Notes under the pieces: generated by a model | Databases searched by the model: none | The model's input: only the letters and a program-made list of their open reading frames with translations | Told to the model about the DNA's origin: nothing | Translations under genes and position numbers: made by a program | Part shown: positions 2,059 through 14,919 of the stretch, one piece after another | Numbering within the stretch: the first letter of the stretch is position 1 | Layout of the letters: every line of letters starts with the position of its first letter | Assembly (NCBI GenBank): GCA_964447985.1 | Contig: CAYUVE010000036.1 | Location: forward strand, 1-15,238 | Direction of reading: 5' to 3' | DNA length: 15,238 nucleotides | Source: an uncultured Thiotrichales bacterium | GTDB lineage: Bacteria > Pseudomonadota > Gammaproteobacteria > GCA-2400775

Positions 2059-3348
2059 ATGAATATATTTCTAACAGGTGGAACAGGTTTCGTTGGTGGT
2101 TATATTTTAAATGCGCTCAGCAACGCTGGACATAACGTAATAGCCGCAGTGAGAAACACTGAGTCAGCTCATAATCGCTGGCCAAATATCACCCTAGTAG
2201 AAGCAGACTTTGCTAGAGATCATCAAGTAGAAGATTGGTTAGAAAAATTGGATGGTGTTGATGTCGTTATCAATGCTGTTGGAATTATTAGTGAAACTAA
2301 ATTCCAGAGCTTTGATGCCTTGCATGCGAAAGCACCCAGTGCGCTATTTCATGCAGCAGAAAAAGCCAATGTTAAACGTATAGTGCAAATCTCTGCTCTG
2401 GGGGTAGATGAACAATCATTCGTGGAATATCAGTTGAGTAAAAAAGTCGCAGATGATTGCTTGAGATCGTTAAATATAGATTGGGTAATACTTCAACCTT
2501 CTTTTATCTATGGCGTGGGTTCCACTAGTCTCAATTTCTTTAATGCCTTCTCCGCTCAGGGAGTTATTCCACTAATAGGGGGAGGGGGACAAAGAATTCA
2601 ACCGATTTATATTGATGACCTTGTACAAGTTGTTTTGGCTGCGATTGATGGTGACGCGCTTAAGAATAAAACGATACCCGTGGTAGGGCCACATGCTATG
2701 GATATTAGGTCTATATATAAAAAGCTGCACGCGTTTTTGGGTTTAGGTAAAACAAGGTTCATATCAATTCCTTACGAATTAGCACTTTTTGCATCGCATT
2801 TAGGCGTGGGGAAGCTTTTGGGGGCACCTCAATTTACTTCTGACGCTATAAAAATGCTTCGTGCAGGTAATACAAGCAATGTTGTTCGAATTGCAGGTTT
2901 GGATAATTACTCGCCTATTAGCTTTGATCAAGGGTTAGCTAAGATACCAGCACAGTCATCAGACCGATGGCATGCAGGATTATTTTTTTTAAAACCCTTA
3001 CTGCGGTATACAATTGGTTTCTTATGGATATTTACCGCTATTGTTTCAGCGTTTTTATTTCCTGCAGAAAGAAGTTATGCCTTACTCGCTAAAGTAGGCG
3101 TTAGCGAATATTGGGCACCATTTTTACTTTATAGTGCTGCCTCATTGAACTTTATTCTGGGTTTGGCAACATTATTTGCCTATCGAGTCTCGCTATTTGG
3201 TTTACTGCAAATAGCTGTGATAGTAATTTACACCACCTTTATTTCAATTGCGTTGACTGAGTATTGGTATCACCCCTTCGGCCCTGTCAGCAAAAACATA
3301 CCTATAGTTGTTGCTATCATGATCATGATGGTTCTAGAGAAAAAGTAA
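2059..3348 (+). CDS. NAD(P)-binding SDR/NmrA-like (epimerase/dehydratase-fold) protein fused to a C-terminal membrane domain of about 130 aa (4 predicted TM, possibly DoxX-like)
   Basis: N-terminal Rossmann motif MNIFLTGGTGFVGGYIL followed by ...AAVRN... as in atypical SDRs. Residues about 300-429 are hydrophobic helices (LLRYTIGFLWIFTAIVSAFLF, FLLYSAASLNFILGLATLFAY, LLQIAVIVIYTTFISIAL, IPIVVAIMIMMVL). RBS AAGGA upstream. Confidence 0.8.
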   Translation: MNIFLTGGTGFVGGYILNALSNAGHNVIAAVRNTESAHNRWPNITLVEADFARDHQVEDWLEKLDGVDVVINAVGIISETKFQSFDALHAKAPSALFHAAEKANVKRIVQISALGVDEQSFVEYQLSKKVADDCLRSLNIDWVILQPSFIYGVGSTSLNFFNAFSAQGVIPLIGGGGQRIQPIYIDDLVQVVLAAIDGDALKNKTIPVVGPHAMDIRSIYKKLHAFLGLGKTRFISIPYELALFASHLGVGKLLGAPQFTSDAIKMLRAGNTSNVVRIAGLDNYSPISFDQGLAKIPAQSSDRWHAGLFFLKPLLRYTIGFLWIFTAIVSAFLFPAERSYALLAKVGVSEYWAPFLLYSAASLNFILGLATLFAYRVSLFGLLQIAVIVIYTTFISIALTEYWYHPFGPVSKNIPIVVAIMIMMVLEKK

Positions 3349-3815
3349 TGGATTACGAAATAGTGAAATGGCTCCATATTTTAAGTGCCACCTTACTTTT
3401 CGGTACCGGTCTAGGGAGTGCTTTTTATAAGTATATGGGTGATAGATCTCAAGATATTTCAACGATTGCTTACACCAATAAGCATGTTGTGTTAGCTGAT
3501 TGTGTGTTCACTACACCTACAATCGTCATTCAACCAATTACTGGGCTGATTCTTGTTTCGATAATAGGGGGTTCTATTACCGATGTATGGGTAATACTTT
3601 CCATAGTTTTTTACACATTAGCGGGACTATGTTGGTTACCTGTTGTGGTTTTACAAATAAGAATGTCAAAAGCAGCTGAGGCTGCACGGTTAAATAATTC
3701 AGAATTACCAGATAGCTATTGGAGATACACGAATCAATGGTTTTGGCTAGGCATACCCGCTTTTTTGTCAATGATGCTAGTGTTTTTATTTATGGTATTA
3801 AAACCAGGGGCGTAA
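3348..3815 (+). CDS. DUF2269-family integral membrane protein
   Basis: The ATG overlaps the upstream TAA (TAATG), indicating translational coupling. The sequence MDYEIVKWLHILSATLLFGTGLGSAFY..., with four hydrophobic helices, is typical of DUF2269. The ORF track's 3264 start overlaps the upstream gene and is unlikely. Confidence 0.7.
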   Translation: MDYEIVKWLHILSATLLFGTGLGSAFYKYMGDRSQDISTIAYTNKHVVLADCVFTTPTIVIQPITGLILVSIIGGSITDVWVILSIVFYTLAGLCWLPVVVLQIRMSKAAEAARLNNSELPDSYWRYTNQWFWLGIPAFLSMMLVFLFMVLKPGA

Positions 3816-3819
3816 TACG

Positions 3820-4254
3820 ATGATAATCAAAGAAGATATAGCACCATATGTTTCCAAAGGCGATAAAGTCATACTGTTTGATGGGGTGTGCAAACTATGT
3901 AGTGCATGGAGTCGTTTTATCATCAAGTACGATACGGCCCATATATTTAGACTCGCTTCTGTGCAATCAAGAGAAGGGCAGTCGATTCTCAAACACTTTG
4001 ATCTTCCGACTGACTACTTCGAAACGATGCTCTATGTAGAAGAATGTGTTGCTTATGAGAAAAGCGATGCGCTATTCAAAGTATTGATACAGTTGCCAAG
4101 GCCGCTATGCTGGCTAGCTTGCGGCGCTATTTTTCCCAAGCCCGCACGCAATTGGGTCTATGACCGTATCGCCTTGAATCGCTATCAGCTATTTGGCAAG
4201 TATCAGCAATGTTTGCTTCCTCACCCTGATCACGAGACACGCTTTTTATCATGA
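3820..4254 (+). CDS. DCC-family (DUF393) thiol-disulfide oxidoreductase
   Basis: Hallmark motif ILFDGVCKLCSAWSRFI (FDGxCxLC) near the N-terminus. The protein is 144 aa. There is a 4-nt gap after the upstream gene. Confidence 0.8.
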   Translation: MIIKEDIAPYVSKGDKVILFDGVCKLCSAWSRFIIKYDTAHIFRLASVQSREGQSILKHFDLPTDYFETMLYVEECVAYEKSDALFKVLIQLPRPLCWLACGAIFPKPARNWVYDRIALNRYQLFGKYQQCLLPHPDHETRFLS

Positions 4255-4646
4255 CAGGTTCAGGATATGAAAAGATAAACTTAATGTCGAGAACGACATT
4301 AGCTTTCGTGTTCTTCTACCACGGATTGGTTTCAAAAATCATTATTATGGACGATTCAGAGCGTGAAATTATTGAAGCCCATGCGTTTTTATCTTCTTCC
4401 GATGCTATTTTATTGGCTTCTGGTGTGGCGGAAATTATCTTGGCTACACTGTTGGTCATTTTTAGGAACTCATTACTCACGATATATTTAGTAATAGTTA
4501 TATTGTTACTATTGTTGATCGATATCGCTCTATTTACGCCACATATCCTTTTTCAAGCGTTTAGCCCAGTAACTTTAAATATGGTGTGTTTAGTCCTGTG
4601 CTGGGTGGTGATTATCACTCATCAAAACAAAGGGGAATTACCATGA
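4251..4646 (+). CDS. DoxX-like family small membrane protein. An alternative start lies at ATG 4284.
   Basis: ATGA overlap with the upstream stop. The AFVFFYHGLVSKI motif and 3-4 TM helices match the DoxX-like architecture. Confidence 0.7.
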   Translation: MTGSGYEKINLMSRTTLAFVFFYHGLVSKIIIMDDSEREIIEAHAFLSSSDAILLASGVAEIILATLLVIFRNSLLTIYLVIVILLLLLIDIALFTPHILFQAFSPVTLNMVCLVLCWVVIITHQNKGELP

Positions 4647-6196
4647 GTGTTGATAAGAAATACGATGTTATCGTCGTTGGCGGTGGGTTGTCTGGTATGG
4701 CAACGGCGATGTTGCTGCAAAATCAGGGGAACAAGACGTTGCTTCTAGAAGCACATTCTCGCCTTGGCGGTTGTGCGGGGTTTTATCGTCGAGATAAGTT
4801 CAGTTTTGATATTGGTGCAACTACCTTGGTCGATTTTAATAAAGACGGTGTTGGCGGCAATTTTTTACAAAAAGTGGGTTTGCAACCAATAAAGGATGAA
4901 TTACTGCCTGGTTATATGGCGTGGTTGCCTGATCGTCGTGTGGAAGTCGCTTCTGACAATACTCGTTGGCAGCAAGAACGTTTAAAAATGTTGGGAGATT
5001 CTAATAGCCATAGAAGATTCTGGAATACGCTCGACGAAATAGCTGATACCTACTGGCAAGCTTCCAGGTCGGGATTAAAAATGCCCATGCGTTCATTCTC
5101 TGATATGTATCGAAATTGGAAGGCGCTAGACTTCAAAGGGTTGATGATGTCGCCATATTTGTTTTCATCAATGGGTGATTTACTTAGGAAAAATGGTTTG
5201 CAAAATGACCGTCCGCTAGTAGGTTTGTTATCAATGATGATAGAAGATACCGTTCATGCCAAAGTCGATTCCGCGCCCCTTATAAATTCGGCATTGGGCG
5301 TCACAATTCGAGGTGCAGGTTTGGCCAGACCAGTAGGAGGGATGCGCGGTTTCTGGCGTCAGCTTGCTAAACGTTATGTCGAGATTGGTGGCACAATTAA
5401 ACTGAATGCGTACGTTAATCAGATTAGTGGAAAATTAGGCAGTTTCTCAGTTAGAGCAAAGAAAAACAAGTTTCAAGCTTTACAAGTTGTTAGTGCATTA
5501 CCTATTCAAAATACTGCAAAAATTGCCTCACATTGCATAGGTAAGCAAGTGCGACAGTTTATCGAGCGTGATAATAAAGCCTTAGGTGGCGGTATAGTGG
5601 TATGCATCGGTGTTCCTGAGAACCAAGTGATAAATTCACCAAGCGGTCATCGTCACCATCAGCTGCTGCAGTCTTATGAGCGAGATCTGGGTAATGGAAA
5701 TAATATGTTTATTTCAATTTCTGCGGAGGAGGATACATTGAGTGCGCCTGAAGGGTTTCGCTCAGTAATGATTTCAACTCATTGTGAACTAGATGAGTGG
5801 AAATTTCTTAATCATTACGAATATCGAGCTGCGAAGAAAAGTATTACTAAAAAACTTATTACTTACGCTCGTCGCGTATATCCGGCCTTAGGTGAGACAT
5901 ACAAAGTGCTCGAGACGGGTACTCCACGTACTTATAAGTTGTTTACTGATCGTTTTGGTGGGTCAATTGGTGGTGCACGTTTGTCGATGCAAAATGCAAA
6001 TCAAAGAGCAGTACCTTACGACTTAGCCACTCCAGGACTATGGATGGTGGGCGATACGACATGGCCAGGACTTGGTACGGTCGCGTGTGTCATAGGTGCG
6101 AGCCACGTAAGTGAAGGCGTGATGGAGTTATTTCGCGATACTAAACTGCAAGTACGTTCTCATCGTAAAGGTTTAGTGCCGAGTTTACAGTTATGA
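4643..6196 (+). CDS. NAD(P)/FAD-dependent oxidoreductase of the phytoene-desaturase (CrtI/amine-oxidase) family
   Basis: Start at ATG 4643, preceded by AAAGGGG and overlapping the upstream stop (ATGA). The N-terminal dinucleotide-binding motif YDVIVVGGGLSGMATAMLL...LLLEAHSRLGGCAG matches the CrtI/amine-oxidase family. The C-terminal end ...GLWMVGDTTWPGLGTVACVIGA is also typical of this family. The protein is 517 aa. Confidence 0.8.
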   Translation: MSVDKKYDVIVVGGGLSGMATAMLLQNQGNKTLLLEAHSRLGGCAGFYRRDKFSFDIGATTLVDFNKDGVGGNFLQKVGLQPIKDELLPGYMAWLPDRRVEVASDNTRWQQERLKMLGDSNSHRRFWNTLDEIADTYWQASRSGLKMPMRSFSDMYRNWKALDFKGLMMSPYLFSSMGDLLRKNGLQNDRPLVGLLSMMIEDTVHAKVDSAPLINSALGVTIRGAGLARPVGGMRGFWRQLAKRYVEIGGTIKLNAYVNQISGKLGSFSVRAKKNKFQALQVVSALPIQNTAKIASHCIGKQVRQFIERDNKALGGGIVVCIGVPENQVINSPSGHRHHQLLQSYERDLGNGNNMFISISAEEDTLSAPEGFRSVMISTHCELDEWKFLNHYEYRAAKKSITKKLITYARRVYPALGETYKVLETGTPRTYKLFTDRFGGSIGGARLSMQNANQRAVPYDLATPGLWMVGDTTWPGLGTVACVIGASHVSEGVMELFRDTKLQVRSHRKGLVPSLQL

Positions 6197-6612
6197 CATA
6201 TCAAGAAAAAATATTATCTACGGTTTTCTTATCTGCCGCGATATACAACGTGGTATGGGGAGTCTTAATTATTTTCTACCCGAACTTGATATTCAAAGTC
6301 TTTGATATCGAACCGCTTAACTATCCGTTCTTAATGAGTGGTATCGGGATGTTTGTTGCCGTTTATGGATATGGATATTGGGTTGTGTCCAGAGATTTAT
6401 ACTGCTATCCGCAGCTTGTTGTTATAGGTTTGCTCGGAAAAACACTAGGGCCTATAGGATGGGGCTTTACTGTATTAAATGGCGATATTCCGGGGAGAAC
6501 ATTATGGGTCAATGTATTTAATGACTTAATTTGGCTACCATTCTTTGTTTATTATTTGTTTTGGTATCAAAAATATAAACAAAGAAATGATTTCAGCATC
6601 GACACCGCTTAA
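6193..6612 (+). CDS. Small hydrophobic membrane protein (139 aa), translationally coupled to the FAD oxidoreductase
   Basis: ATGA overlap with the upstream stop. Predicted TM helices: LSTVFLSAAIYNVVWGVLIIF, FLMSGIGMFVAVYGYGYWVV, LIWLPFFVYYLFWY. Confidence 0.65.
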   Translation: MTYQEKILSTVFLSAAIYNVVWGVLIIFYPNLIFKVFDIEPLNYPFLMSGIGMFVAVYGYGYWVVSRDLYCYPQLVVIGLLGKTLGPIGWGFTVLNGDIPGRTLWVNVFNDLIWLPFFVYYLFWYQKYKQRNDFSIDTA

Positions 6613-6700
6613 GTGAAATATAAGATTAGCGTTACAAAATAGAAATAGTGACAGCATAAGTATTCGCTTCTTTATAAAAACGTAGGGGTAATATTTCATT

Positions 6701-7711
6701 ATGAATAGTAATGAAAAAGATATTGTTAAAAAAGATTCTAGGTTGGAGTTTTCTGCTTGGATACCTCTTTTCGCTGGAGCCACTTATGGGATATTAATGC
6801 GAATCTTATTTGAGATGTCAAGCTTCTCAGATAAAGATTTAGAGGTGATGACTTTTGCATTTATCATTATCGTTCCTATTGCTGTGGGTGTTGTAACGGT
6901 TGTTTTTGCAGAAGCAAAAAAAAGTCATGGCTTTTTGTATTTTATCTTTGCGCCTTGGGCCTCCATTACTATATTTGTCCTTGGAACGGCTATCTCATTA
7001 CTTGAAGGTCTGATTTGTATTGCTATGGCATTTCCCCTTTTTCTTGTCCTCGGGTCATTTGGAGGCTTAGTCGCAGGTATAGTTACTCGGTATACGATTC
7101 ATAGAAAGTCCATTGTGACATGTGTTGGGGTGTTACCTATTTTGGTTGGGTTCTACGAAGCAGGAGAACCGATGTCAAATATCTATGCTGAAATCAGTAG
7201 AGATATTTATATTGAGGCGTCTCCGAATACAGTTTGGCACCAAATAAATTATCCAACTAACATTAAACCAAAAGAACTTAAAAACGGATTTGCTTATAAG
7301 ATAGGTGTCCCATATCCGATAGAGGCCAGAACGCTAGAGGAGCGTGTTGGTGGTATGCGAAACCTTATTTGGCAACGAGGGATCACCTTTCGGGAAGAGA
7401 TTACAGCTTGGGAGGAAAACAGATATATCGCATGGAATTATATTTTTGATAAAAATTCGTTTCCTCCTGGTTCAATGGATGATCATGTGGTGATTGGGGG
7501 TAAGTACTTTGACTTGAGAGAGACGTCTTATACATTAATACCAACGGGTAAAGGCACATTACTAGTACTCAAAGTTGGCTACAGAGTGAGTACTAGCTTT
7601 AATTGGTATTCTCAATTTTGGGGAGACTTTCTAATTGCTGATACAGCTGAGACTATACTGGAATTCTACAGGAATAGATCAGAAGCTAGCATAAGAAATT
7701 TATCTAAATAA
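6701..7711 (+). CDS. Membrane-anchored SRPBCC (Bet v1/START-like) domain protein
   Basis: About 130 aa of N-terminal TM helices, then a C-terminal region with an SRPBCC-like layout: IYAEISRDIYIEASPNTVWHQINYP...GGMRNLIWQRGITFREEITAWEENRYIAWNY. AGGGG lies about 12 nt upstream of the ATG. Confidence 0.65.
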   Translation: MNSNEKDIVKKDSRLEFSAWIPLFAGATYGILMRILFEMSSFSDKDLEVMTFAFIIIVPIAVGVVTVVFAEAKKSHGFLYFIFAPWASITIFVLGTAISLLEGLICIAMAFPLFLVLGSFGGLVAGIVTRYTIHRKSIVTCVGVLPILVGFYEAGEPMSNIYAEISRDIYIEASPNTVWHQINYPTNIKPKELKNGFAYKIGVPYPIEARTLEERVGGMRNLIWQRGITFREEITAWEENRYIAWNYIFDKNSFPPGSMDDHVVIGGKYFDLRETSYTLIPTGKGTLLVLKVGYRVSTSFNWYSQFWGDFLIADTAETILEFYRNRSEASIRNLSK

Positions 7712-7762
7712 TGTGACGAATAAGTCTAGACGTGCTAGTTAATTTTTTATTTAAAAAACTAT

Positions 7763-7790
7763 TTGACTTTTATTTTTTTAAGCGTAAGAT
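7763..7790 (+). promoter_or_regulatory. Sigma70-type promoter: -35 TTGACT (7763-7768), 16-bp spacer, -10 TAAGAT (7785-7790). An A/T-rich UP-like tract lies upstream.
   Basis: The -35 hexamer is perfect and the -10 matches at 4 of 6 positions, just downstream of the stop of the 6701 gene. The predicted TSS near 7797 would initiate the long non-coding region. Confidence 0.45.
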
Positions 7791-7796
7791 GCGCGC

Positions 7797-8714
7797 CACT
7801 ATGAATAAATTGAACTCACAAATGAATGTTCTTGCTAGCGCACTTGGCGGTTATCGCCTTTATGCGTGCGGCGCGAGCACGCGTGTTCAAAACCTCGAAC
7901 AGGTTTTGTGGCACATATCATTTGATGGTGAGAGTCAAAACATAACGTAGTTCTCTTTTAGGAGGACTGCGTGGCAGTCTTCCTAAGTCTTTATAAAACT
8001 AGGCTTTAGACGACTGTCAGTCTCTGAGGTGCTAGTGATTCTGGGCTGCTTTGTCGTCGAGCCTACTTCTTACTCTCAGAGCAGAAAGCGTCCTACAAAA
8101 CGTGGACATGTTGCGATAGCGGGTTCTTTGGGTCCCGTCTGGCACAAGGCACGCTGTGTTGTTGTGTACCTCATGTTTGCGAGTTGTATCGACACCATAG
8201 GTAGCTCATGGGCAGAGCAGCGAACTGATAATTCGTCGGTAGTGGGTTCGAGTCCCACCCTAGAACAGCCTGCAAAGCTGTTACGCGTAAGCGTACTAAG
8301 TAAAAAACTAGGTGAGAGGCTTCTCGGTTAATGTGTTTGATGGTTAAACGAATATGAAATGGAATTCGCGCTAACAACGGATGGTTTGGCCTGTGTGATA
8401 GACAACGAAATGAAGAACGAACTGTGGCGCTATCGTAGATAGGGAGGCGAAGAGACATAGCTGTGTAGTTAGGCAGCAGTGTCTCGCGATAGACGGGTAA
8501 GCGACTACTCATTTTGACGGTATCACCCGCTAAGACAACGTGGGAAGCCTCTTCATCTTTTTGAAGAGTGACCAATGGTTATATGAAAGAAATGAATGAT
8601 GAAATGAAAGGAGATTAGCAATGAAAACGTAGATGTGTCGGTGACGGCAGCCCGTAAGGTGCACCGAGTGAGAAATGCCGGGCTTATGTTGTGAAATAAA
8701 TAAAGGAAACAATC
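7797..8714 (+). ncRNA. Roughly 900-nt non-coding, hairpin-rich leader or structured RNA preceding the SPFH-RtcB genes. Extent and boundaries are uncertain.
   Basis: No credible ORF: only short, mutually overlapping ORFs on both strands, without RBS context. Stems include 7864-7882 (gcgtgc/gcacgc), 7888-7908 (caaaacct/aggttttg), 7958-7986 (13 bp with one GU, 3-nt loop, sequestering AGGAGG), 8263-8281, a tacgc-GUAA-gcgta tetraloop hairpin, and 8549-8568. The tRNA-like element lies at 8195-8266. Confidence 0.45.
8195..8266 (+). ncRNA. tRNA-like element (pseudo-tRNA, Y-RNA-like or other tRNA mimic) with a defective acceptor stem
   Basis: Folded by hand. U8-A9 ta; D-arm gctc-atgggca-gagc; anticodon stem gcgaa/ttcgt with 7-nt loop ctgataa (U33, anticodon GAU, A37); variable loop cggta; T-arm gtggg-ttcgagt-cccac with a canonical TTCGAGT loop. 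The putative acceptor pairs ccatagg with cctagaa in only 4 of 7 positions. Discriminator is c. No CCA is encoded. Confidence 0.5.
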
Positions 8715-9839
8715 ATGTTAAAAATGAAAAGAGTCGTGATTGCACAGCACGAGCGCGGGTTATACCTAGAAGATAGAAGTATTGTCCGTGTGTTGTCGCC
8801 AGGTGTTTATTGGAGCCTGAGCACAAGAGTGCACATCGTGGTCTTAGATACACGTAATGTGGAGGTAATCCACGATGCAGTATCGGCCTTGGTTGAAAGC
8901 AATCGAGAATTGGCCGAACAATATTTCCAGGTATTAGATCTTGGTGAATATGAAATCGGTCTGTTGTATCAGAGGAACACATTACAAAGGGTGTTAGCGC
9001 CAGGTGAACGTTATGTTTTCTGGAGAGAGAATAAAGATTTGCGAATCGATATTGTCGACATCAAAGAAGACTACCGTTTAGCTAAAGATCTGGCAAAGGT
9101 CTTAGTGAGACGTTCTATTCGTAATGCATCAGAAGCTGTTTACCCAGTAGAAGTGGCATCAGGTCATATTGGTCTGCTGTGGGTGGATGGTGAGCTGATT
9201 GATAGCTTAAAGCCTGGTGTTTACGCCTACTGGCGTTATAACCGTAACATTAAGGTTGAGCATGTTGATCTACGTTTGCAGGCGATTGATGTCTCAGGTC
9301 AGGAAATTCTGACTAAAGATAAAGTCAGCTTACGGATTAACTTAACGGCAGTTTATAAAGTTGTCGATGCGGTAACGGCACGATTAGCGGTAAATGTGTA
9401 TTCAGACCATGTGTATTTGCAATTACAACATGGTTTACGCGAAGCCGTAGCCACACGAACGCTAGATACGTTACTGGCAGATAAGGAGTCTTTAAATGGT
9501 GAGTTGTATCAAACCGTAAAAGCTAACTTAGCTGAGTATGGTATTAAAGTGGATCGTGTTGGTGTTAAGGACATTATCTTGCCTGGTGATATGAAAGATA
9601 TTTTGAACCAGGTTGTGGCGACTGAAAAGGCCGCCCAGGCTAATGTTATCCGTCGGCGTGAAGAAACCGCTGCAACAAGATCGTTGCTGAATACTGCAAA
9701 ACTGATGGATGAACATCCAACATTGATGCGGTTAAAGGAGATTGAAGCGTTAGAAAAAGTCACTGAGAAGGTAGATCGTATTACCGTCTACGATGGCTTA
9801 GATGGTTTGCTTCGAGATACCGTTAAGCTGCAGGTCTAG
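8715..9839 (+). CDS. SPFH/Band-7 (stomatin/prohibitin/flotillin-like) domain protein, no TM segment, with a triplicated N-terminal beta-motif
   Basis: RBS AAGGA lies 7 nt upstream. The SPFH core is recognisable: ...KPGVYAYWRYNRNIKVEHVDLRLQAIDVSGQEILTKDKVSLRINLTAVYKVVD...GIKVDRVGVKDIILPGDMKDILNQVVATEKAAQANVIRRREETAATRSLLNTAK. The N-terminal 150 aa contain two extra copies of the GLLx..L..VL.PG.Y..W motif. The C-terminus is helical and charged. Confidence 0.8.
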   Translation: MLKMKRVVIAQHERGLYLEDRSIVRVLSPGVYWSLSTRVHIVVLDTRNVEVIHDAVSALVESNRELAEQYFQVLDLGEYEIGLLYQRNTLQRVLAPGERYVFWRENKDLRIDIVDIKEDYRLAKDLAKVLVRRSIRNASEAVYPVEVASGHIGLLWVDGELIDSLKPGVYAYWRYNRNIKVEHVDLRLQAIDVSGQEILTKDKVSLRINLTAVYKVVDAVTARLAVNVYSDHVYLQLQHGLREAVATRTLDTLLADKESLNGELYQTVKANLAEYGIKVDRVGVKDIILPGDMKDILNQVVATEKAAQANVIRRREETAATRSLLNTAKLMDEHPTLMRLKEIEALEKVTEKVDRITVYDGLDGLLRDTVKLQV

Positions 9840-9862
9840 TAGTAAGTAATAAGGAAGAGGGC

Positions 9863-9893
9863 CCCAACCCCAGAAGTTGCCAATGGGGTTGGG
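9863..9893 (+). other. Intergenic perfect 10-bp stem / 11-nt loop hairpin between the SPFH gene and rtcB
   Basis: cccaacccca-gaagttgccaa-tggggttggg. No U-tract follows. It could act as an RNA processing or stability element, a partial terminator, or a protein-binding site. Confidence 0.4.
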
Positions 9894-9940: not shown

Positions 9941-11137
9941 ATGCCAATTAAACAGGTGATTAAAAAAGGCAAAGTACCCGTCAAAATCTACACCAATGAT
10001 ATTGACCCAGGTGCTTACGAGCAGTTAGCGAATATGGCGCAGATGCCTTTTATTCATTCGCATATTGCTGCCATGCCTGACGTGCATAAAGGAATCGGTG
10101 CCACCGTGGGTTCAGTGATACCAACAAAGGGCGCTATTATTCCTGCTGCCGTGGGGGTAGATATTGGCTGCGGTATGAACGCAGTGCGTCTGAGCCTAAG
10201 TGCCAATGAATTGCCGGATAACTTGAAAGGCCTACGTAGCGCTATTGAGCGCGATGTGCCTGTCGGTTTTGCTATGCATAAAACGGATGCCGTGCCAGAT
10301 TCAACTGTCAGGGCTTTATCTCCAGGGCTAGAGACTATTTGGGGTAAACACCCAAAGTTAAAGCCGAAAAAGAAAAAGCCTTTTCATAGTTGGGTGAGAC
10401 AGTTAGCGACACTAGGTGGCGGTAACCATTTTATCGAGTTATGTCTTGATGAAAATAATGACGTCTGGGTAATGTTGCACTCGGGCAGTCGTGGCGTAGG
10501 TAACGCCATTGGTCAGTACTTTATTGAACTGGCGAGACGAGACATGGAAAAGATTCAAAAGAATCTGCCAGATCGTGACTTGGCTTACTTTACCGAAGGT
10601 ACCGATCATTTTGATGATTATTTACAAGCCGTTAGTTGGGCGCAGGATTATGCTATGACTAATAGGCGTGAAATGATGCGTATCCTTATCAAGGTGTTAC
10701 AGCACAAACTGCCTGCATTTAAAGTGACAAAAGAAGCCATTAACTGTCACCACAACTATGTAGACGAAGAAGTGCACTATGGCGAATCGGTCTTTGTCAC
10801 CCGTAAAGGTGCTATCAGAGCCAGCGAAGGCGAGTACGGGATTATTCCCGGCAGTATGGGTGCAAAATCTTTTATCGTCAAAGGTAAAGGTAACCCAAGT
10901 TCGTTTTGTTCCTGCTCACATGGTGCTGGTAGGGTAATGAGCCGTACTGCAGCGAAAAAGCAGTTCACCAGTGTTGATCTGGAAGCCCAGACCAAAGGTG
11001 TCGAATGTAGAAAGGATAAATCAGTGATTGACGAAATCCCTGCTGCATATAAAGACATCGATACCGTCATGGATAACCAAAAAGACTTGGTGGAAGTAGT
11101 GCATACCTTGAAACAGGTTGTCTGTGTCAAAGGCTAG
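9941..11137 (+). CDS. rtcB: RtcB-family RNA 3'-phosphate/2',3'-cyclic-phosphate to 5'-OH ligase (short form, 398 aa)
   Basis: RBS AGGAAG upstream. All RtcB active-site motifs are present: MPDVHKGIGATVGSV, VGVDIGCGM (metal-ligand Cys), GGGNHFIELCLD, MLHSGSRGVG, CHHNYVDEE, and SFCSCSHGAGRVMSR (the His that becomes guanylylated). Confidence 0.85.
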   Translation: MPIKQVIKKGKVPVKIYTNDIDPGAYEQLANMAQMPFIHSHIAAMPDVHKGIGATVGSVIPTKGAIIPAAVGVDIGCGMNAVRLSLSANELPDNLKGLRSAIERDVPVGFAMHKTDAVPDSTVRALSPGLETIWGKHPKLKPKKKKPFHSWVRQLATLGGGNHFIELCLDENNDVWVMLHSGSRGVGNAIGQYFIELARRDMEKIQKNLPDRDLAYFTEGTDHFDDYLQAVSWAQDYAMTNRREMMRILIKVLQHKLPAFKVTKEAINCHHNYVDEEVHYGESVFVTRKGAIRASEGEYGIIPGSMGAKSFIVKGKGNPSSFCSCSHGAGRVMSRTAAKKQFTSVDLEAQTKGVECRKDKSVIDEIPAAYKDIDTVMDNQKDLVEVVHTLKQVVCVKG

Positions 11138-11192: not shown

Positions 11193-11318
11193 TGCTTAAT
11201 CGAAATAAATATCAAGCAACACCGGGTGGCGTGGTGATATACGCCACCGATTTATTCGACTCGATTTATATAAGATTTTTAAAAGGTTCTAACTATGGAA
11301 ACAAAGCTATTAAATGAA
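11193..11318 (+). CDS. Possible 41-aa small ORF (MLNRNKYQATPGGVVIYATDLFDSIYIRFLKGSNYGNKAIK) overlapping the start of the next gene
   Basis: A strong SD AGGAG lies 6 nt upstream of the ATG. The ORF's stop overlaps the 11295 gene by 24 nt, which could allow coupling. Against it, the ORF contains an 8-bp hairpin (11225-11248, ggtggcgt/acgccacc). It could therefore be a leader peptide, a regulatory structure, or spurious. Confidence 0.25.
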
Positions 11319-12221
11319 GTCATAGCGTGTTTGCCAAAAGGTAAAACACATTATCGCTATTACAAAAATGCCTATGCTGCCAAATTATTGAATATGGCGA
11401 TGCGTCACGACGCGCCTATAAAATCAGTACGTCGGTCGCGCTATGCTAAGTTGTTGAATAATGTATTACTAAAGGGTGTCGTCGCCAATAGTGGCGATGG
11501 CGTTGTGCGTAAGCAGCAACTCGACAGCTTGTGGCAGGAACCTTCGTTACCTTTCATATTGACAGCGGCAAAGTGGCGCTATTGTTCACGTGGCTGGTCG
11601 CAGGTGTCAAGACCAGGCGATAATCTTGTGTTACAGCTTAATATGTCGACACAGCATGATCAGCTTTATGAGCGTTATGTTCACAATTATGATTTTAATC
11701 CATACACATGTCATCCGGTGTTATCAAAGCGGAGAAGATCGATAGCTAGAGAGACTTTAGCCTGGTCACGTATAGATTTTGATTTATCTTCTGACGAAGC
11801 GTTAATCGAAGAGATACAAAGTGATGCTATCAGAGAAATGTTGTGGTTAAAAAATTACACTATGAAACGTGATGACAGTCGTAGTCGCAATGATAAAACC
11901 TATCTAGAATGGTTTGAACCGTATTTAAAGTGTTGGCAAGAAGCGATGTTAATGGCCACGGTAGAATTTATTCGCTACGAACTTGGGATCAGTAGAATTT
12001 ATATTCATACTGATACGTCGGGTTGGAAAGTAAAGAAAATGCGAAAGAATTGGCTGCCACCAAAGTCTTTGTATTCTGATTTGCCAAGGAAATTTGCCTT
12101 TAAGCAAACCTGGAATGCGCCAGAGTTTTTACTGGGTACGCGCGGATATAAAAATCTTATCCGCAAGCAGCCGGATATTGATTTTTATCTTTTAGACTTT
12201 ACTCAGTCCATTGCAGCGTAG
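11295..12221 (+). CDS. Hypothetical protein (308 aa) with no recognisable domain, encoded downstream of rtcB
   Basis: Clean ORF in operon orientation. Composition is basic and aromatic-rich (many R/K/W/Y). I could identify no HEPN, PIN, GGQ, P-loop or Rossmann motif by eye. Confidence 0.7.
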   Translation: METKLLNEVIACLPKGKTHYRYYKNAYAAKLLNMAMRHDAPIKSVRRSRYAKLLNNVLLKGVVANSGDGVVRKQQLDSLWQEPSLPFILTAAKWRYCSRGWSQVSRPGDNLVLQLNMSTQHDQLYERYVHNYDFNPYTCHPVLSKRRRSIARETLAWSRIDFDLSSDEALIEEIQSDAIREMLWLKNYTMKRDDSRSRNDKTYLEWFEPYLKCWQEAMLMATVEFIRYELGISRIYIHTDTSGWKVKKMRKNWLPPKSLYSDLPRKFAFKQTWNAPEFLLGTRGYKNLIRKQPDIDFYLLDFTQSIAA

Positions 12222-12444: not shown

Positions 12445-13056
12445 TCATATAGTCATAGGCTTATTATCTTTATGCTGCCACATATACATAGCGAGATATG
12501 AGCGGTAGGGCGAGAACTTTTCAGCTGTTGTGCTGATATCTTTATCATCACCTATTAGTTTTTGAAAGGTTTTGATGACAGCTACATCTTTATCGGGCCA
12601 TATGTCTGGGTCACAAAAGTAAAAAAGATTGACCATGTCAGCTGTCCATGGACCGACTCCCCAAATTGATGTTAGGGTTTTCGCACGTTGTTTCTGATCT
12701 AGCTTTTCCAAATTTTCTGCGGTGATATGTCCTGTATGAAAACTATGAGCAATAGCAGACAGTGTTTTGCACTTCGCGGCAGATAACCCGCAAGTGCGCA
12801 GGTCTTCGGTCTTACTAGAATGAATAAACTCTAGTAATGATTTTCCGTTTGATACATCTAAGAGTCTTTGCCAAATGGTACTAGCCGCTTTGGTTGAGAG
12901 TTGCTGGCCTGCTACTGAACGACAAAGTAATTCTGGTAGTGGAATATGTTGTCGAGAAGTGATTTTGACAACGCCTATTTGTTTGATGGAATGATGTAAT
13001 GGCCCACTGATATTCTTAGAGAGTTTTAAAAATTGTTGATGAATAGAACGAGACAT
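12445..13056 (-). CDS. HhH-GPD superfamily DNA glycosylase (AlkA-like DNA-3-methyladenine glycosylase II)
   Basis: Helix-hairpin-helix/GPD motif ...LTSIWGVGPWTADMVNLFYF.DPDIWP.D.... The 203-aa length is typical of single-domain AlkA/Mag-type glycosylases. Confidence 0.75.
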   Translation of the reverse strand: MSRSIHQQFLKLSKNISGPLHHSIKQIGVVKITSRQHIPLPELLCRSVAGQQLSTKAASTIWQRLLDVSNGKSLLEFIHSSKTEDLRTCGLSAAKCKTLSAIAHSFHTGHITAENLEKLDQKQRAKTLTSIWGVGPWTADMVNLFYFCDPDIWPDKDVAVIKTFQKLIGDDKDISTTAEKFSPYRSYLAMYMWQHKDNKPMTI

Positions 13057-13086: not shown

Positions 13087-14919
13087 CTAGTTTAAGGAGT
13101 CATGGTCCTCTTTACGTATACCAAATATTTTCATTCGATAGTTGAGTGTTGAGGCTTTAATGCCCAATAATTCAGCAGCGCCATCTTTTCCCCAGACTTG
13201 CCAATTAGCACTGCGAAGTGCAGCAATAATGTTATTTTTTTCCATTTCGCGGATCTCAGCGTCCGTGAGGTAATCTGTATTTTTTGTTTTCGACTGAGAT
13301 ACTAGGGTTTCCTGAGGTGCGAGTTTAGGGAGGACTAAATCGAGCCGAGCGCGGCCGCCTTTACTTAAGATGGCAGCACGCTCAATGGTATTCTTGAGTT
13401 CTCTTATATTACCTGGCCAGTCATGTTGTTTAAGGTGATTAACTTGTTGTTTTGAGAGTTTTAATGACTCTCGACCGAGTTGTGTACAACTACGGTTAAG
13501 AAAATGTTGTGCAATGGGTGCAATATCATCGGTGCGTTCACGTAGTGGCGGTACGTTAATAGGGAAGACACTTAAACGGTAAAATAGGTCTTGGCGAAAA
13601 AGGCCTTTCTTAATCTGTTCTTCAAGATTTAAATTCGTTGCAGCAATAATGCGAACGTCCACTTTAATGGTTTTATCATCGCCTACGCGTTCAAATTCAT
13701 ATTCTTGTAATACACGTAATAATTTGCTTTGCAGATCAAGCGGAATTTCGCCAATTTCATCGAGAAATAATGTACCGCCATCGGCAAGTTGCATACGGCC
13801 TATTCGGTCTCGATGTGCACCGGTAAAGGCGCCTTTTACATGACCAAAAAATTCGCTTTCAAATAAGTCTTTCGGGATAGCGGTGCAGTTGACCTTAACT
13901 AAGGGCTTACTGCTACGATCGCTCTTAGCATGAATAGCACGTGCAATCATTTCTTTACCTACACCCGATTCGCCTAGTAATAAGACGTTGGCTTGTGTTG
14001 TGGCTACGGCATCAATCTGTGCCATGGTGCGCTTTAAGGCATCGCTATCGCCAATAATTTCTCCAAAATCAGAAGTCACATTTATTTCATCGCGTAGGTA
14101 ATCGCGTTCGAGTTCAAGTTGCTGTTTGAGGTGGTTAATTTCCCGGTAGGAAGCTTCGCGTTGTTTCTCGATTTCTTTACGTTCGGAGATATCACGAAAA
14201 ACGACAACGGCGCCAGCGAGTTTTCCGTTTTGACGAATAGGTGTGCTGGTGTATTCCACGGGTATGGGTGAGCCGTTGGCATGCCAGAATACTTCATCAT
14301 CGACATGATGTACTTCGCCGTCCTTGAGTGCGGCATAAACGGGGCATTCGTCTCGTGGATAGATTGAACCATCTACCCGGGTATGGTGATGAACATCATG
14401 AGCGGGTTTACCGATGACGTCTTCGAGTTTCCAACCAACAATTTCAGTAGACGCGGCATTGGCAAAGATGGTCATGCCATTAGCGTCTAAGCCGTAAATT
14501 CCCTCACCAGCGGCGTTAAGAATGGACGCATGTTCTGTTTCTAAGCGCTCGAGCTTGGTTAAGGCTTCGTCGAACTGATCATTATGGTTTATGTGTAGTG
14601 CTAACCATGGTTTGTCATCGTCGTCTCTCGGCAGTGACCAGGCAGACATCAAGCCATGCACGACACCGCTTTTTCCATTGATGGAGACAGGAAGAGCTTG
14701 TAGCGGTTTTTCCTCGGTCCTTGCTTGCTGCAGTGTTTCCACCAACATCGAGTCTTCTTCAATATCAAAGAGTCTATCTAACGGTAAGACAGTGTCGTCG
14801 CTATTGGCCATGCCGAGATGCTGTGCCCAGCCCTGACTGATATGCCGACAGACGAGTTGTGCATCGAGTAAGCCGAGAAGAGTCGGTGCTTCATTCAGTA
14901 GCTTTGTTGTTGTGAGCAT
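13087..14919 (-). CDS. Sigma54-dependent transcriptional activator (bacterial enhancer-binding protein) with N-terminal PAS-type sensor domains and a C-terminal Fis-type HTH
   Basis: AAA+ sigma54-interaction core: LLLGESGVGKEMIARAIH (Walker A), ESEFFGHVKGAFTGA (GAFTGA motif), GGTLFLDEIGE (Walker B), WPGNIRELKN. The N-terminus contains PAS-like repeats (GIYGLDANGMTIFANAAS...). The C-terminal HTH is AAELLGIKASTLNYRMKIFGI. Confidence 0.85.
   Translation of the reverse strand: MLTTTKLLNEAPTLLGLLDAQLVCRHISQGWAQHLGMANSDDTVLPLDRLFDIEEDSMLVETLQQARTEEKPLQALPVSINGKSGVVHGLMSAWSLPRDDDDKPWLALHINHNDQFDEALTKLERLETEHASILNAAGEGIYGLDANGMTIFANAASTEIVGWKLEDVIGKPAHDVHHHTRVDGSIYPRDECPVYAALKDGEVHHVDDEVFWHANGSPIPVEYTSTPIRQNGKLAGAVVVFRDISERKEIEKQREASYREINHLKQQLELERDYLRDEINVTSDFGEIIGDSDALKRTMAQIDAVATTQANVLLLGESGVGKEMIARAIHAKSDRSSKPLVKVNCTAIPKDLFESEFFGHVKGAFTGAHRDRIGRMQLADGGTLFLDEIGEIPLDLQSKLLRVLQEYEFERVGDDKTIKVDVRIIAATNLNLEEQIKKGLFRQDLFYRLSVFPINVPPLRERTDDIAPIAQHFLNRSCTQLGRESLKLSKQQVNHLKQHDWPGNIRELKNTIERAAILSKGGRARLDLVLPKLAPQETLVSQSKTKNTDYLTDAEIREMEKNNIIAALRSANWQVWGKDGAAELLGIKASTLNYRMKIFGIRKEDHDSLN

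Follow-up and report, generated by a model that had tools for sequence, protein, structure and literature searches.

An E. coli-type RtcB ligase in a probable RtcB/Band-7/tRNA-like RNA repair operon with a recurrent GNAT-fold neighbour

The window analysed here, a stretch of 15,238 nucleotides (nt) of contig CAYUVE010000036.1 from an uncultured Thiotrichales bacterium, carries a gene for the RNA ligase RtcB, preceded by a tRNA-like RNA and a gene for a soluble SPFH/Band-7 protein and followed by a gene for a 308-amino-acid protein that we call P308. We conclude that this RtcB probably does the sealing in a compact operon for RNA repair that matches the predicted RtcB/Band-7/“b7a-tRNA” system; the argument starts from the identity of the enzyme, its intact active site, the gene set around it and the recurrence of that set in other genomes, and extends to a substrate, a scaffold role for the SPFH protein and a role for P308 that we infer. 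That RtcB can be encoded next to a Band-7 protein, together with a putative tRNA-like non-coding RNA, “b7a-tRNA”, was described by Burroughs and Aravind 2016 (NAR 44:8525), as summarised in bioRxiv 10.1101/312249, which in its account of the system also gives the Band-7/b7a-tRNA pair as a proposed functional analogue of Ro60/YrlA. Little is established so far about the physiological substrates and cofactors of RtcB enzymes in bacteria, and the Band-7/tRNA-like branch is predicted only; the present locus is a compact example of it with a cultured relative, Arenicella xantha, and could provide an experimental entry point.

Judged from its alignments, the window RtcB is a real, full-length gene. 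Its product covers the entire Pfam RtcB model (PF01139, positions 1-426 of 426; E 9e-132), matches the PHROG “tRNA splicing ligase” at 3e-152, and aligns end to end with the 408-amino-acid RtcB of Escherichia coli K-12 (56% identity, only two small gaps). Hundreds of homologues are exactly 398 amino acids long, which lends good support to the start codon; the nearest relatives, from Arenicella and other Arenicellales, are 79-99% identical. The RtcB proteins of Pyrococcus horikoshii, Thermus thermophilus and human align to the window enzyme in two segments only (E 1e-24 to 1e-34), and the long forms of about 480-505 amino acids are archaeal, Thermus and human, whereas 398 amino acids is the ordinary bacterial length. 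By these comparisons the window RtcB is an ordinary E. coli-type enzyme, and the special short form that the initial annotation had seen in it is simply the bacterial norm.

The active site is complete. The metal ligands (one aspartate, one cysteine and three histidines) and the guanylylated histidine are all present (D74, C77, H163, H180, H272 and H327), and each motif listed in the initial annotation as intact does align with catalytic residues of the E. coli and P. horikoshii enzymes (Table 1). Residue numbers were counted from alignments with the E. coli, P. horikoshii and T. thermophilus proteins, the first taken from the annotated genome and the other two from solved structures. The roles of the metal-binding and guanylylation residues belong to established RtcB biochemistry, and mutagenesis in the Shuman laboratory has reportedly defined which RtcB residues are essential. 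By its active-site residues and the full match to PF01139, the enzyme looks catalytically competent, and its designation as a probably active ligase appears sound.

What surrounds the enzyme was described initially as non-canonical and as including none of its usual partners. RtcA, CARF-RtcR, archease, Ro60 and PrfH are indeed absent from the window according to Pfam searches of all large open reading frames (ORFs), and Rfam finds no Y RNA there. The neighbours are nevertheless those of a described partner module: the combination of an SPFH/Band-7 protein and a tRNA-like RNA has been published as a partner set of RtcB, and the rtc locus of Pseudomonas aeruginosa also holds an SPFH gene (PMC13086221). 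The same statement overlooked a sigma-54 activator gene 2 kb downstream and the conserved adjoining ORF for P308, which is the most consistently linked partner of all. The value of our analysis for the RtcB itself is thus mainly corrective, an ordinary RtcB in a neighbourhood of known type; the supposition that its neighbours are meaningful is borne out, in that the linkage is conserved across loci and not incidental.

The evidence for this conservation comes from 80 genome loci sampled by RtcB similarity and 80 metagenome loci sampled by P308 similarity (designated L with a number), all scored with tblastn and ARAGORN. The SPFH protein encoded in the window matches Band_7 (PF01145; E 8e-29) over residues 146-317 of 374 and has no hydrophobic segment (maximum Kyte-Doolittle mean over 19 residues, 1.17); its gene lies on the same strand as that of RtcB, 101 nt upstream. 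SPFH homologues of 42-59% identity adjoin RtcB and/or P308 in many loci, and SPFH-RtcB pairs homologous to that of the window are found in L003, L010, L061, L162 and many metagenome loci. Arenicella xantha shares the Band_7-RtcB-P308 order of the window and likewise carries a tRNA-like gene upstream.

The tRNA-like gene of the window is called by ARAGORN as a cloverleaf with a GAU anticodon and sits 448 nt 5' of the SPFH start codon. Its acceptor stem, as folded, has just 4 base pairs (bp), its CCA end is missing, and its Rfam tRNA score of 48.7 bits covers model positions 4-67 only. A same-strand tRNA-like gene occurs 299-448 nt 5' of the SPFH start in 17 of 18 informative related loci (those in which an SPFH homologue is preceded by about 500 nt of sequence or more) as well as in the window, and throughout the scored sample tRNA-like genes adjoin the module only in loci with an SPFH homologue. 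When the elements of 16 loci are aligned, compensatory changes appear at 15 of the 19 pairs of the cloverleaf; its D and T arms hardly vary, its acceptor stem keeps only five pairs, and its anticodon differs between loci (GAT, CAT, TTT, GTT or AGG), with some loops of 6 nt. Comparative sequence analysis identifies the element as a conserved structured RNA and not a stray tRNA gene. The closest SPFH-bearing relatives have two tandem tRNA-like genes (L003, 4138-4302, a metagenome-assembled genome of an uncultured Arenicella; L162, about 6163-6320, A. xantha), and the window's single gene corresponds to the second of this tandem pair.

The spacer between the tRNA-like gene and SPFH may be one long structured leader RNA. 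Folding places a hairpin at about 8264-8282, directly after the tRNA-like element, followed by a GNRA hairpin (ACGC-GUAA-GCGU) and then a 3' CCCGC-N-GUGGG element; the GNRA-loop stem and the 3' CCCG...GTGTGG are common to the leaders of the window, L003, L162, L101, L105-L107, L110, L113, L114 and L126. A second T-arm-like element, GGTTCGAATCC, is present in the leader of most relatives and degenerate in the window. A Y RNA or YrlA in the 980-nt non-coding stretch 5' of SPFH was considered and rejected, as Rfam gave no match to either over 7650-9000, even at E <= 10.

In a rival reading, the tRNA-like element and its leader would act chiefly in cis, as a sensor or decoy within the operon's 5' untranslated region. 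Cleavage of the tRNA-like part by a ribotoxin, or its processing by RNase P/Z-type activity, would then control SPFH-RtcB expression and replace the CARF-RtcR sensing of tRNA halves in Salmonella, where damaged tRNAs are the inducing signal (PMC7790460); RtcB would repair bulk tRNA or rRNA, and the RNA would not be a cofactor. Such a role is suggested by the same-strand position of the gene at a fixed short distance 5' of SPFH, by the conserved leader, by the failure to find an intervening terminator, by the absence of CARF-RtcR from the window, and by an anticodon loop that is widely variable or aberrant, as expected of a decoy. However, a Glaciecola locus (L061) has the layout RtcR(CARF), tRNA-like, SPFH, RtcB; it carries both elements, and therefore CARF-RtcR and the tRNA-like/SPFH pair are not simple alternatives. 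The proposal is moreover compatible with the repair operon that we favour, not exclusive of it. We regard it as unlikely that sensing or decoying is the main function of this RNA.

On the other side of RtcB, a confident predicted model gives P308 a GNAT fold, and P308 is on this ground a GNAT-fold protein of unassigned activity; we name it by fold alone because neither sequence-level GNAT membership nor the canonical acyl-CoA loop (Q/R-x-x-G-x-G/A) is evident. P308 has no match in Pfam, NCBIfam, PADLOC or PHROGs, and its family is without a name in any source examined. The family comprises 873 representatives at the 50%-identity cluster level, and nearly all those listed are 300-330 amino acids long; domain fusions of the longer members were examined and none was informative. 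An origin of P308 from mobile elements was rejected, as no relatives were found in IMG/VR or in phage or plasmid collections.

P308 is the most consistently linked partner of the RtcB subgroup to which the window enzyme belongs. It lies immediately 3' of RtcB in 11 of the 15 closest genome loci, only two of which have SPFH; where P308-seeded loci have enough flanking sequence, RtcB is present in 37 of 54 and SPFH in 20 of 54. The gene order is not fixed (RtcB-P308, SPFH-P308-RtcB, RtcB-P308-tRNA-like-SPFH and SPFH-P308 were all seen), and the gap from RtcB to P308 is only 4-10 nt in many relatives.

A neighbour-joining tree of 112 full-length RtcBs from the sampled loci, rooted on E. coli, is in line with a separate subgroup of this kind. 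Copies associated with RtcA and CARF-RtcR, from E. coli, Acinetobacter and Moraxellaceae, show 56-62% identity to the window enzyme and lie apart from those associated with P308, for which the identity is 63-81%; a third, small group follows tRNA arrays. The window RtcB falls outside the RtcA/RtcR-linked subgroup. This separation is indicative, not definitive, because the loci were chosen by similarity and the method is simple. Loci with two RtcBs repeat the pattern within one stretch of DNA: in L012 (2117-8152), L014 (798-8152) and L087 (766-5894), RtcA stands by a copy 59-60% identical to the window RtcB and P308 by a 71% copy; in L101 (1940-7157), a 57% copy comes after a tRNA array and a 72% copy follows P308. 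The initial annotation had considered that the enzyme might fall inside a well-studied RtcB clade and be unlinked to the SPFH gene and the non-coding RNA; we find it close to E. coli RtcB and yet in a separate subgroup, and its link to SPFH and the non-coding RNA recurs in many loci.

These data also bear on a rival view, in which RtcB is a housekeeping enzyme whose true partners (RtcA, RtcR and others) are encoded elsewhere, and SPFH, the tRNA-like RNA and P308 are neighbours without shared function. The 56% identity to E. coli RtcB would agree with this view, as would the lack of SPFH beside several of the closest RtcB relatives and the solitary P308 genes in about a third of loci, and our view of the genome is limited to 15 kb. 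By contrast, three or four of the components recur together, in varied orders and often with gaps of 4-10 nt, in many gammaproteobacterial and metagenomic loci, and loci that carry both RtcB types keep RtcA by one paralogue and P308 by the other. We consider a housekeeping role with functionally unrelated neighbours quite unlikely.

The loci of relatives also point to what the operon may act on. In nine related SPFH loci, a further 5-18 tRNA genes with many anticodons lie directly upstream and on the same strand; the arrays listed in Table 1 hold 6 to 18. The tRNA arrays and the recurrent GNAT-fold partner suggest tRNA as the object of repair and one more enzymatic step. In the repair operon that we favour, the order would be tRNA-like RNA, structured leader, soluble SPFH/Band-7 protein, RtcB and GNAT-fold protein. 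RtcB would rejoin 2',3'-cyclic or 3'-phosphate ends to 5'-OH ends with GTP and Mn2+; the ends would be produced by metal-independent ribotoxins, such as anticodon nucleases, and the substrates would most probably be tRNAs (or the tRNA-like RNA). A soluble SPFH oligomer loaded with the tRNA-like RNA could serve as scaffold or cofactor, in analogy to what has been proposed for Ro60 and Y RNA in rsr-yrlBA-rtcBA; alternatively, within the same mechanism, the tRNA-like element of the leader could serve as decoy or sensor. The GNAT-fold protein would contribute an accessory modification step. A tRNA-related substrate or cofactor and a role in repair of ribotoxin damage, as suggested in the initial annotation, seem reasonable, and the same inference was drawn by Burroughs and Aravind 2016, according to the summary in bioRxiv 10.1101/312249.

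It is possible, and we propose it only tentatively, that the P308 family is an as yet undescribed core part of tRNA repair modules centred on RtcB and works as an enzyme on tRNA or on the tRNA-like cofactor; with SPFH, the tRNA-like RNA and the back-up tRNA arrays of relatives it would form a “tRNA back-up and repair” island. In Pnkp/Hen1 repair, methylation by Hen1 marks or protects the repaired RNA; by analogy, P308 might transfer an acyl group to a nucleoside, a 2'-OH or an aminoacyl group and so mark or protect tRNA after repair. The GNAT-fold partner family is the most interesting lead at the locus.

Table 1. Features of the window, RtcB active-site motifs, and tRNA arrays of related loci
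Feature	Position	Strand	Basis or remarks
RtcB 3'-phosphate/2',3'-cyclic phosphate to 5'-OH RNA ligase	9941..11137	+	ATG 9941, stop 11137; 398 amino acids; Pfam and alignments
DIGCGM motif of RtcB	D74, C77		E. coli D75, C78; P. horikoshii D95, C98
GGGNHFIE motif of RtcB	N162, H163		E. coli N167, H168; P. horikoshii H203 for H163
HSGSRG motif of RtcB	H180, R184		E. coli H185, R189; P. horikoshii H234 for H180
CHHNY motif of RtcB	H271, H272		E. coli H280, H281; P. horikoshii H329 for H272
SHGAGR motif of RtcB	H327, plus R331/R335		E. coli H337 (guanylylated); P. horikoshii H404
tRNA-like RNA gene (“b7a-tRNA” type)	8195..8266	+	ARAGORN, Rfam, folding, covariation
Leader between tRNA-like RNA and SPFH start	8267..8714	+	Conserved length, alignments, folding; putative
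Soluble SPFH/Band-7 protein, 374 amino acids	8715..9839	+	Pfam Band_7 PF01145
Stem-loop, SPFH-RtcB intergenic	9862..9893	+	Read from sequence; 9-bp GC-rich stem, 13-nt loop, T tract absent
Terminator-like hairpin, RtcB-P308 intergenic	11225..11248	+	Consensus scan; 9-bp stem, then GATTTATT; weak evidence
P308, 308-amino-acid protein of unnamed family, predicted GNAT-fold core	11295..12221	+	Conserved neighbour of RtcB
Small HhH-GPD glycosylase-like protein	12445-13056	-	
Sigma-54 activator with PAS sensor domains	13087-14919	-	Pfam; CARF absent; 2 kb downstream
tRNA arrays of related loci	L090 1008-3037; L110 76-2448; L114 62-1918; L151 63-1366		Same strand as SPFH/P308/RtcB module
tRNA arrays of related loci	L126 135-1163; L113 1734-2979; L101 190-1246; L010 644-1756		Same strand as SPFH/P308/RtcB module

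A sister-strain contig with an identical P308 (L164, 1480-7340) has a 5.7-kb insertion between the P308 gene and the HhH-GPD gene, which encodes a metallophosphoesterase, an MBL/Anti-Pycsar Apyc1-like protein, an RlaP nucleotidyltransferase, a NUDIX/NrtR protein, a second Band_7 protein and another 308-amino-acid protein; the site therefore accumulates RNA-repair or conflict genes and is a strain-variable hotspot. The Band_7 and 308-amino-acid pair of the insertion is unrelated to the window proteins, and a second copy of the module was rejected. With this insertion directly after P308, and with genes flanking the module that differ between close relatives, the module could be taken for cargo of a variable defence or counter-defence island that serves phage-host or inter-bacterial conflict and not stress repair in general, possibly under the PAS-type sigma-54 activator. 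However, PADLOC has no match for SPFH, RtcB or P308, no P308 relatives were found in the viral, phage and plasmid collections named above, and neither is the activator beside the module in relatives nor is a convincing sigma-54 promoter found. We hold island cargo to be a very improbable account of the module.

The sigma-54 activator itself shares with RtcR only the AAA+ and helix-turn-helix part, at 34% identity, and RtcR models match it from residue 265-288 onwards. In related genomes neither it nor the HhH-GPD gene lies beside the module, and the closest relatives lack the activator there. No convincing sigma-54 promoter was found before the operon: the best upstream site (8140-8155) has two mismatches, and it is no better than chance because the window holds fewer sigma-54-like matches (51) than shuffled sequence (mean 63). 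Control of the operon by the downstream activator was therefore dropped as unsupported, the sensor domains being PAS and not CARF, the gene being absent beside the module in the closest relatives and the promoter match standing at chance level; we do not count the PAS-type activator as part of the RtcB system.

Several points weigh against a repair operon built on RtcB, SPFH, the tRNA-like RNA and P308. SPFH is missing at many loci with the closest RtcBs, for example L001 and L002 (79-81% identity), and is thus dispensable for this RtcB subgroup; likewise, the linkage of P308 to RtcB is frequent and not obligatory, since about one locus in three has P308 by itself among unrelated genes. A tRNA array is missing from the window, the acceptor stem of its tRNA-like element is weaker than in relatives, and its leader has lost their second T-arm-like element. 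A promoter of the operon is not established, the sigma-54-like site being at chance level, and co-transcription is assumed over two intergenic regions that both contain hairpins. Regarding the system at large, b7a-tRNA was never experimentally validated and the Band-7-type components are without experiment, going by bioRxiv 10.1101/312249; and deletion of the P. aeruginosa SPFH gene PaFlo8 gave no phenotype in the assays used (PMC13086221).

Both intergenic stem-loops are GC-rich, and a short T-rich stretch comes after the second; they may serve in processing, stabilisation or attenuation. Further upstream on the plus strand, a sigma-70-like promoter (TTGACT, 16 nt, TAAGAT; 7763-7790) and, about 170 nt beyond it, a 14-bp terminator-like hairpin that ends in a T tail (7957-7987) suggest a small transcript or an ORF of about 46 amino acids at 7763-7995, 5' of the tRNA-like gene; in L003 a comparable promoter and a strong terminator occupy the equivalent relative place (about 3655-3990). 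The plus-strand genes at 2059-7711 (an NAD-binding/DoxX fusion, DUF2269, a DCC1-like thiol-disulfide oxidoreductase, DoxX, an FAD amine-oxidase-like protein and membrane proteins) have the appearance of a redox or membrane cluster with no relation to the operon.

Compared with E. coli rtcR-rtcBA (RtcB1), the window has the same type of enzyme, 56% identical from end to end, with matching active-site residues and an almost equal length; it differs in having neither RtcA nor a CARF-domain RtcR, and its RtcB falls in a different subgroup of the tree. Pfam detects no RtcA in the window, and E. coli RtcA gives tblastn matches in other loci but not in the window. The RtcB2-PrfH ribosome-repair module (PMC9223846, PMC9304027) likewise shows an RtcB paralogue of bacteria that has a partner and a substrate of its own. 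A PrfH-type RtcB2 was rejected for the window enzyme, which scores 136 bits against a cut-off of 272 for TIGR03073 and 169 against 407 for NF007153 (NCBIfam); Pfam searches of all large ORFs in the window reveal no PrfH. They reveal no archease either, and the window RtcB has 398 amino acids vs about 480-505 in the archease-dependent archaeal and eukaryal enzymes.

Salmonella rsr-yrlBA-rtcBA (Ro60/Rsr with YrlA) resembles the window in combining an RtcB operon with a tRNA-mimicking non-coding RNA and a putative RNA-binding scaffold protein. The window has no Y RNA and no TROVE/Ro60 protein (Pfam finds a TROVE domain in none of its ORFs), and its candidate scaffold is SPFH; the Salmonella RNA is a Y RNA stem with a tRNA-like module, whereas that of the window is a nearly complete cloverleaf. 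In P. aeruginosa PA14, the SPFH gene PaFlo8 (PA14_60630) is embedded in the rtc locus (PMC13086221, 2026); both loci join SPFH with rtcB, but the Pseudomonas locus keeps RtcA and RtcR, and the window has neither. The layout of the Glaciecola locus L061 is comparable to that of Pseudomonas. In Anabaena, long tRNA arrays are co-regulated with rtcB under translational stress (PMC8421152, a paper that makes no mention of SPFH or Band-7); related SPFH/P308/RtcB loci with their tRNA arrays resemble it, and the window itself has none.

The closest counterpart is the RtcB/Band-7/b7a-tRNA system of 2016, which we compare through its summary in bioRxiv 10.1101/312249. The window is a minimal version, with one tRNA-like gene, a weakened acceptor stem and no array; it nevertheless holds all three parts, with the tRNA-like gene just 5' of the Band-7 gene, in an arrangement that recurs in its relatives.

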